Below, one piece after another: positions 3,984-57,695 of a stretch of 64,000 nucleotides of DNA. Position 1 is the first letter of the stretch, and each line of letters begins with the position of its first letter. Under the pieces are notes generated by a model that did no database searches, was not told the origin of the DNA, and saw only the letters and a list, made by a program, of their open reading frames with translations. The stretch comes from Eledone cirrhosa (Eukaryota): positions 173,600,001-173,664,000 of the forward strand of contig OZ024741.1 of NCBI GenBank assembly GCA_964016885.1, written 5' to 3'. The position numbers were made by a program, and so were the translations under genes.

Positions 3984-4354
3984 TTATAATACAATACATG
4001 CACCACACCTCCAGCGAGATGTTACCCTCACCACATTTGTGCTAGACAGAGTTCTTTGTTGGCTGCTACTGTGTGTGCTCAATTGTTCATTCATCTCTTG
4101 CATATTGTTCAACGAATCAACATGATGATTATCACGTGTTGTGTCTAGAGGAGATGGCACTTCATGAATTGAAGTTGATACATTGTCATTGCTAGGTACA
4201 TTAGATTTTACTGAACTGGGTACGGTTGATTTGGGTTCTGTTTTAGTCTTACCATTCTCATCTTTAGTGAAATAATGTGAAATTCGGTGGATAATCTCTT
4301 TGTATTTATCCGCCAAGTCAGCAGTCATTCCTGAGCTTCCATGTCCCCCTATAC
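3984..4354 (-). CDS. Roco gene terminal exon (TIR end, S/T-rich tail, CaaX)
   Basis: TTTCAG|(G)[28 protein letters not shown]...[10 protein letters not shown] followed by a second TAA; phase-1 acceptor. Confidence 0.9.

Positions 4355-57695: not shown

Follow-up and report, generated by a model that had tools for sequence, protein, structure and literature searches.

The locus analysed here, on contig OZ024741.1 of Eledone cirrhosa, raises the question whether a kinase-free Roco protein that ends in Death and TIR domains and a lipidation signal is encoded as a single chain and, if so, how such a protein might work. The window, i.e. the whole stretch of DNA that was analysed, comprises 64,000 nucleotides. 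Exon-sized minus-strand frames were located by six-frame reading and the splice sites of the gene model were read by eye. The 13 exons of the original prediction were all recovered: between 3984 and 57695 on the minus strand they join into 2214 nt that encode one frame of 737 amino acids ending in CGACIVL, with a single terminal stop, and all 12 introns between them are GT-AG. With a single window exon as query, two octopod proteins were found: P0001, of 1264 aa, from Octopus bimaculoides, and P0002. Both were then used as tblastn queries against the window together with the 200 kb upstream of it, and the window exons each matched P0001 in order. A Pfam scan of ten window exon pieces returned COR-A twice, Death once and TIR_2 twice, with no relevant match for the other five; the predicted COR, Death and TIR_2 domains are thus found on the window exons themselves (Table 1).

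Table 1. Features of the Roco-Death-TIR gene and of repeats in its surroundings (window positions unless stated).
Feature	Position	Strand	Content and evidence
Exons 1-8	2.9-55.2 kb past base 64000	minus	NHR, ROC
Exon 9 of 21	57552..57695	minus	aa 534-581; ROC-COR linker and COR-A start
Exon 10	51736..51945	minus	aa 582-651; COR-A core; Pfam COR-A 2.4e-9, over cut-off
Exon 11	49890..50048	minus	aa 652-704; COR-A; Pfam COR-A 0.0026
Exon 12	47862..47991	minus	aa 705-747; COR-A to COR-B; tblastn and model
Exon 13	39315..39472	minus	aa 748-800; COR-B region; orthologue fold match to Roco; COR-B match on orthologue P0038
Exon 14	31793..31894	minus	aa 801-834; COR-B region; tblastn and model
Exon 15	29835..30014	minus	aa 835-894; COR-B end with conserved Cys/His
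Exon 16	21096..21168	minus	aa 895-918; end of Cys-rich segment; 73-nt spacing in spliced contig
Exon 17	18829..18987	minus	aa 919-971; linker and first half of Death domain
Exon 18	17356..17529	minus	aa 972-1029; Death domain; Pfam Death 6.4e-6
Exon 19	12593..12768	minus	aa 1030-1088; first half of TIR_2, glycine-rich BB loop; Pfam TIR_2 5.5e-12
Exon 20	5791..5968	minus	aa 1089-1147; second half of TIR_2; Pfam TIR_2 7.8e-6
Glu1107	5912-5914, in exon 20	minus	catalytic position of TIR_2
Exon 21	3984..4354	minus	aa 1148-1270 and stop; last TIR helix, disordered linker, lipidation tail
C-terminal CGACIVL	3987..4007	minus	CaaX box ending in Leu; second Cys three residues upstream
Non-LTR retrotransposon copies	9900-12210, 22700-23500, 35100-36480, 43600-43900		in introns
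LINE reverse transcriptase fragments	14150-16330, 40-1440, 33460-34440, 3010-3400		intron and downstream of gene

Eight further exons upstream of these carry a Neuralized homology repeat (NHR) and the ROC GTPase, the NHR being exon 1, about 55 kb beyond the window end. The complete model comprises 21 coding exons joined across 20 GT-AG introns and encodes 1270 residues with a single terminal stop; of the 1262 residues aligned to P0001, 1115 (88%) are identical. NHR, ROC, COR, Death and TIR_2 lie on one chain in this order, with COR directly after ROC. A ROC domain had been expected upstream of the window, and the upstream exons supply it with a P-loop (GKDKVGKT, aa 194) and DFAG (aa 388); THRN stands at aa 478. 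In Pfam, P0001 and P0002 carry Neuralized (1e-36), Roc (9e-11 on P0001), COR-A, Death and TIR_2, and COR-B has no match on either. The N-terminal sensor repeats that had also been expected were not found: an LRR or ankyrin sensor was rejected, its place being taken by a single NHR nearest to Drosophila Neuralized NHR1 (2.8e-30). The description as a kinase-less Roco protein was correct, and a kinase domain was rejected, as no kinase Pfam family matched P0001 or P0002 at E<=0.1 and the HRD, DFG and VAxK motifs are absent from the 1270-aa model. A transmembrane anchor was likewise rejected, because hydrophobicity over 19 residues never exceeds 1.37 in the model.

Some details of the model may be added here. 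In the exon 1 region the shared Met is preceded, 8 codons away, by a stop in frame and, just upstream, by an ATG that is out of frame; the Argonauta model begins 7 residues earlier than ours, and the O. bimaculoides model lacks exon 6, probably through a prediction error. On exons 15 and 16 the COR end shows Cys and His positions that are conserved (CxC ... HFL..L..C ... C) and form a possible candidate for a zinc or other metal site. An optional Cys-rich insert in this part is missing in amphioxus and hemichordates.

The gene is expressed and spliced from COR to TIR. A 1637-nt contig of run X4 lies in consecutive pieces on exons 15, 17, 18 and 19 with no mismatch, and the gap between its first two pieces is 73 nt, the size of exon 16; pieces for exons 14 and 16 were not among the matches listed. 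COR and TIR exons had been claimed to share one transcript, and the spliced contig does join the COR end to Death and TIR. The junctions are supported by this contig for exons 15-19 (COR end, Death, TIR), exons 9-13, 20 and 21 lying outside the mapped stretch; in the table of junctions from the run, repeats predominated. Intron-free Logan contigs of 4.3-6.3 kb, too short to hold introns of such size, encode cephalopod orthologues in full. A false joining of separate genes, or a pseudogene, might be suspected, given that the introns are long and repeat-filled and that no run is recorded as RNA, X4 having no stated library type. The open frame over 21 exons and the spliced, mismatch-free contig refute this, the full-length octopod orthologue at its high identity also arguing against it, and we regard the chance of such an artefact as negligible.

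A search with the COR-TIR region listed 93 proteins, the first 59 of which are orthologues from cephalopods, gastropods, bivalves, a chiton, annelids, nemerteans, a rotifer, echinoderms, hemichordates, amphioxus and a centipede; one hemichordate orthologue is named 'neuralized PATS1'. A 50%-cluster search with look-ups added orthologues of horseshoe crab, spiders, ticks, mites and flatworm, and a search with the centipede protein (49 matches listed) added a priapulid and a millipede. Among the 93 and 49 matches listed, none bears the name of a vertebrate, insect or crustacean; these searches were word-limited and do not prove absence, and that the family is missing from the three groups is suggestive only. 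In a quick tree of 66 of the 150 Death-TIR rows, from which a coverage filter excluded the cnidarian rows, the orthologues group by taxon and the window gene is sister to P0001 at 99% SH-aLRT; several tree rows with the label 'other' proved to be orthologues, and its group counts are left aside for that reason. In the 3.0-Gb genome the TIR exon is matched once, a lower bound, and the gene, itself conserved, appears to be single-copy and not expanded. Molluscs and a centipede are already on record as having the architecture NHR-Roc-COR-Death-TIR_2 and, judged by its sequence, the gene is an ordinary orthologue of this 'neuralized PATS1' group, with the same domain order and no architectural difference. 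Gerdol et al. are said to have described in 2017, as ecTIR-DC, conserved invertebrate TIR families; the family of the window gene likely belongs to them and may already be classified in that work. In their available parts, the publications on the catalogued architecture mention neither the CaaX tail nor the TIR glutamate nor the G4 change described below, and report no experiment.

In the same tree a Death-TIR-TIR family is separated by a long branch that has 100% support. These long proteins without ROC-COR (among P0062-P0091 and P0101-P0132) mostly end in a lysine-rich CaaX, e.g. KKKSKTCSIL, resembling K-Ras tails, and lipid anchoring may be general to the TIR_2 branch, this sister family included. 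One of them was deposited as sea-urchin 'MyD88-like protein L1', on which a literature search gave no paper. The hemichordate model P0149 is fused to LSM14/FDF/YjeF_N domains and is possibly a merged gene model.

The terminal CIVL had been read as a CaaX box, and the comparison bears this out. Among the 67 orthologues examined, 60 have a full tail, and 56 of these carry Cys at -4; each of the 56 has a second Cys between -5 and -8, and Leu is the last residue in 53. The remaining four full-tail sequences resemble mispredicted ends and were counted as misses. The chance of C and L at both tail places is about 0.002. Because the tail is kept in 56/60 although the linker before it is only 7% conserved, the alignments indicate that the CaaX is kept by selection. 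By the usual rules CaaL is recognised by geranylgeranyl-transferase I, and a Cys close to it can be palmitoylated. A literature search that lay mostly outside the subscription journals found no paper linking a CaaX to invertebrate proteins with TIR and death domains or to a Roco protein with COR, and the words Roc, COR, CaaX and neuralized do not occur in the TIR survey PMC7075850.

The TIR is the best conserved domain (65%, against 41-53% for NHR, COR and Death) and in Pfam matches TIR_2 (1.8e-23) far ahead of TIR (0.0034, below the cut-off). Its Glu, residue 1107 here, is invariant in three alignments (38/38, 57/57 and 56/56 rows), and a pattern count gave E in 58 of 58 matched rows, with 9 of 67 unmatched. 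Via the relative P0146, Glu1107 aligns with the Glu of the AbTIR WTNYE motif; according to the available text of Manik et al. (bioRxiv 2022.05.07.491051), AbTIR E208 is catalytic and W204 is required for cyclisation. The position E-4 is His in 22 rows, Leu in 21 (Leu here) and another residue in the rest, but Trp in 0/58, and the product is therefore more probably linear ADPR than a cyclic form. Sequence matches of the TIR are the enzymes AbTIR, Cat1 and SARM1, AbTIR giving the best PDB matches of exon 19; no MyD88 TIR matched at E<=0.001, and MyD88 matches cover the Death domain only. A Death-TIR model from P0002 (pLDDT 88.6) places the TIR at Z 17.4 to Hydra TRR-2, 16.9 to SARM1 and 16.2 to MyD88, which are tied, so that in the modelled fold the scores do not separate SARM1 from MyD88; its Death part matches death domains at Z 10-11. 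The Death domain matches those of MyD88 and p75/NRADD, the nearest being p75NTR/NRADD. Of the 'MyD88 layout' proposed originally, the order Death then TIR stands, but the TIR keeps an enzyme Glu and is less MyD88-like than was thought. In its accessible part, bioRxiv 2026.04.20.719644 deals with catalytic animal TIRs, lists Roc and COR among the domains in a figure legend, and reports that Glu-bearing non-TLR animal TIRs, one with Roc and COR according to that legend, made cADPR, Glu being common in animal TIRs and not proof of catalysis. Its supplements may include a member of the Roco-Death-TIR family.

The nucleotide pocket is conserved in three of its motifs and altered in the fourth. In ROC, 52 of the 54 readable rows have GKT/GKS at G1; the Thr of G2 and the DFxG of G3 are kept, and conservation is at least 90% in these three motifs and in the switch II segment (YYTTHQVFL). 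The G4 consensus is T/N-H/K-x-D, its Asp reading guanine. This Asp is replaced by Asn in the window gene (THRN) and is found in only 16 of 59 rows, so that GTP gating may be weak; a canonical G4 Asp is not a defining Roco requirement and bears on activity. Another Roco gene of this genome keeps the Asp, as does the cnidarian relative considered below. ROC is split by an insert of about 150 residues that is 17% conserved, and chelicerate orthologues score weakly on Roc. As modelled by AlphaFold (mean pLDDT 76), the Lottia orthologue has a disordered ROC insert and tail, and by Foldseek the model matches Roco structures (LRRK1 4.8e-21, bacterial RocCOR 1.5e-16, also LRRK2). Prediction of a complex of the Lottia ROC-COR and Death-TIR parts, in which no alignment was used, gave a score of 0.02 and a mark of 0.34.

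From these features we derive, at a probability of roughly 45%, a prenylated, nucleotide-gated and membrane-anchored switch that would control a predicted NAD+-cleaving TIR. The Cys-x-x-CaaL tail would carry a geranylgeranyl and probably also a palmitoyl group, which would hold the protein at the membrane on a disordered linker of about 110 residues. Neuralized NHR1 binds short peptides, and the NHR here may serve as input by binding a short peptide of a partner protein in the same manner. The dimer state of ROC-COR would shift with the nucleotide, the GDP dimer being the resting form and GTP releasing it, as in Chlorobium Roco, for which the available text of PMC5714945 describes the dimer as the GDP or empty form and monomers with GTP. 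Because GTP splits the dimer of this best-studied bacterial Roco, we favour by analogy a release from a resting dimer over the GTP-driven clustering of the original prediction. The freed Death domains and glycine-rich TIR surfaces would then assemble on the membrane and complete the TIR active sites, and NAD+ would be hydrolysed, with linear ADP-ribose a likelier product than 2'/3'-cADPR as the cyclising Trp is missing. As a result NAD+ could be depleted locally or a small molecule could act as a signal, be it in defence, in cell death or in the pruning of neurites. The order of NHR input, dimer switch and Death/TIR assembly is proposed by analogy only, and the literature search found no measured activity, localisation or ligand of any family member. 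Expression support for an immune role is thin; in its accessible part, a table of PMC4769524 gives a clam 'neuralized pats1' isoform as down in infection nodules.

Of the readings that compete with such a switch, one would make the protein a membrane-anchored, non-enzymatic adaptor that bridges TIR receptors to IRAK/Pelle-type kinases as MyD88 does, ROC-COR setting its availability. The domain order, the Death domain matches to MyD88 and p75/NRADD and the TIR fold score tied with SARM1 agree with this, and an Aplysia study places its Roco gene among MyD88-like adaptors, but the lead of TIR_2 over TIR, the sequence matches to enzymes in place of the MyD88 TIR and the invariant Glu do not, and we consider it unlikely. 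It is also conceivable that ROC-COR is a degenerate, constitutive scaffold without gating and that clustering by the NHR ligand alone activates the TIR. The scarce G4 Asp, the poorly conserved ROC insert and the weak chelicerate Roc scores would be in keeping with this, as would a sister family that does entirely without ROC-COR; the conservation of G1-G3 and switch II, however, would be expected only if nucleotide binding matters, which renders an inert scaffold quite improbable.

The biochemistry might also be as proposed and the role developmental or neuronal rather than immune, the NHR binding NxxN-type motifs (e.g. of Notch ligands) and the TIR acting like that of SARM1 in cell or neurite removal. 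The kinship of the NHR with Neuralized NHR1 and of the Death domain with p75NTR/NRADD would suit such a role, and the single TIR-exon match (a lower bound) and the by-taxon grouping of the quick tree fit a conserved hub better than a fast-evolving pathogen sensor. Yet a RING domain is absent, the NHR is the least conserved folded domain (41%) and relatives are treated in immune inventories; this role is unlikely too, and a shade more doubtful than that of an adaptor.

Several known systems share parts of the architecture. Cnidarian NG3 proteins (PMC5094078; P0060, P0061, P0063) are kinase-SH3-Roc-COR-Death-TIR_2 and have the ROC-COR-Death-TIR_2 core in common with the window protein, with about 31% of residues identical across 96% of the query region and with the same Glu, but carry a kinase-like domain and SH3 in place of the NHR, end in a CaaX in 0/3 and keep the G4 Asp. 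The Roco family (LRRK1/2, DAPK1, MFHAS1, Chlorobium Roco) shares ROC followed by COR in the same fold; the window protein differs from it in lacking kinase and LRRs and in its long ROC insert, G4 Asn, Death-TIR output and lipidation signal. With SARM1/TIR-1 and AbTIR it shares the TIR fold and the Glu at the catalytic position, and by analogy activation driven by assembly is likely, whereas ARM-SAM and a Trp at E-4 are absent and enzyme activity is predicted only. MyD88 likewise has Death then TIR, whereas here the TIR is of TIR_2 type with Glu, within a 1270-aa Roco protein that bears a prenylation signal. Bacterial LRR-GTPase-COR proteins with TIR effectors are described in the available text of PMC8195603.

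What appears unreported is the conserved Cys and CaaX tail, the enzyme-type TIR Glu without the cyclising Trp, and the relaxed ROC G4. Lipid anchor, enzyme-type TIR and altered nucleotide pocket turn a list of domains into a testable mechanism. If this mechanism is true, the protein would be an animal TIR enzyme under GTPase control and a kinase-free Roco with a simple enzymatic read-out, useful for the question of the ROC-COR cycle. A wider and rather doubtful extension would be an ancient, prenylated Roco of bilaterian invertebrates (up to amphioxus) whose GTPase cycle, triggered through the NHR, directly switches on a membrane TIR NADase, forming a second, SARM1-like NAD+-destroying pathway that these searches did not find in vertebrates or insects, with the CaaX-anchored Death-TIR-TIR sister family as possible partners.

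A second COR match in the genome was rejected as a copy of the gene, as it belongs to a separate LRR-Roc-COR gene (L002 868-3498, minus strand, G000:C7), a long single exon of 876 aa in the locus with G4 THAD, which we take to be MFHAS1-like. The introns of the Roco-Death-TIR gene hold related non-LTR retrotransposon copies that consist of reverse-transcriptase fragments and a C-terminal nuclease-like frame and are interrupted by stops and frameshifts. The LINE reverse transcriptase fragments, presumably of RTE type, are high-copy in the DNA run.
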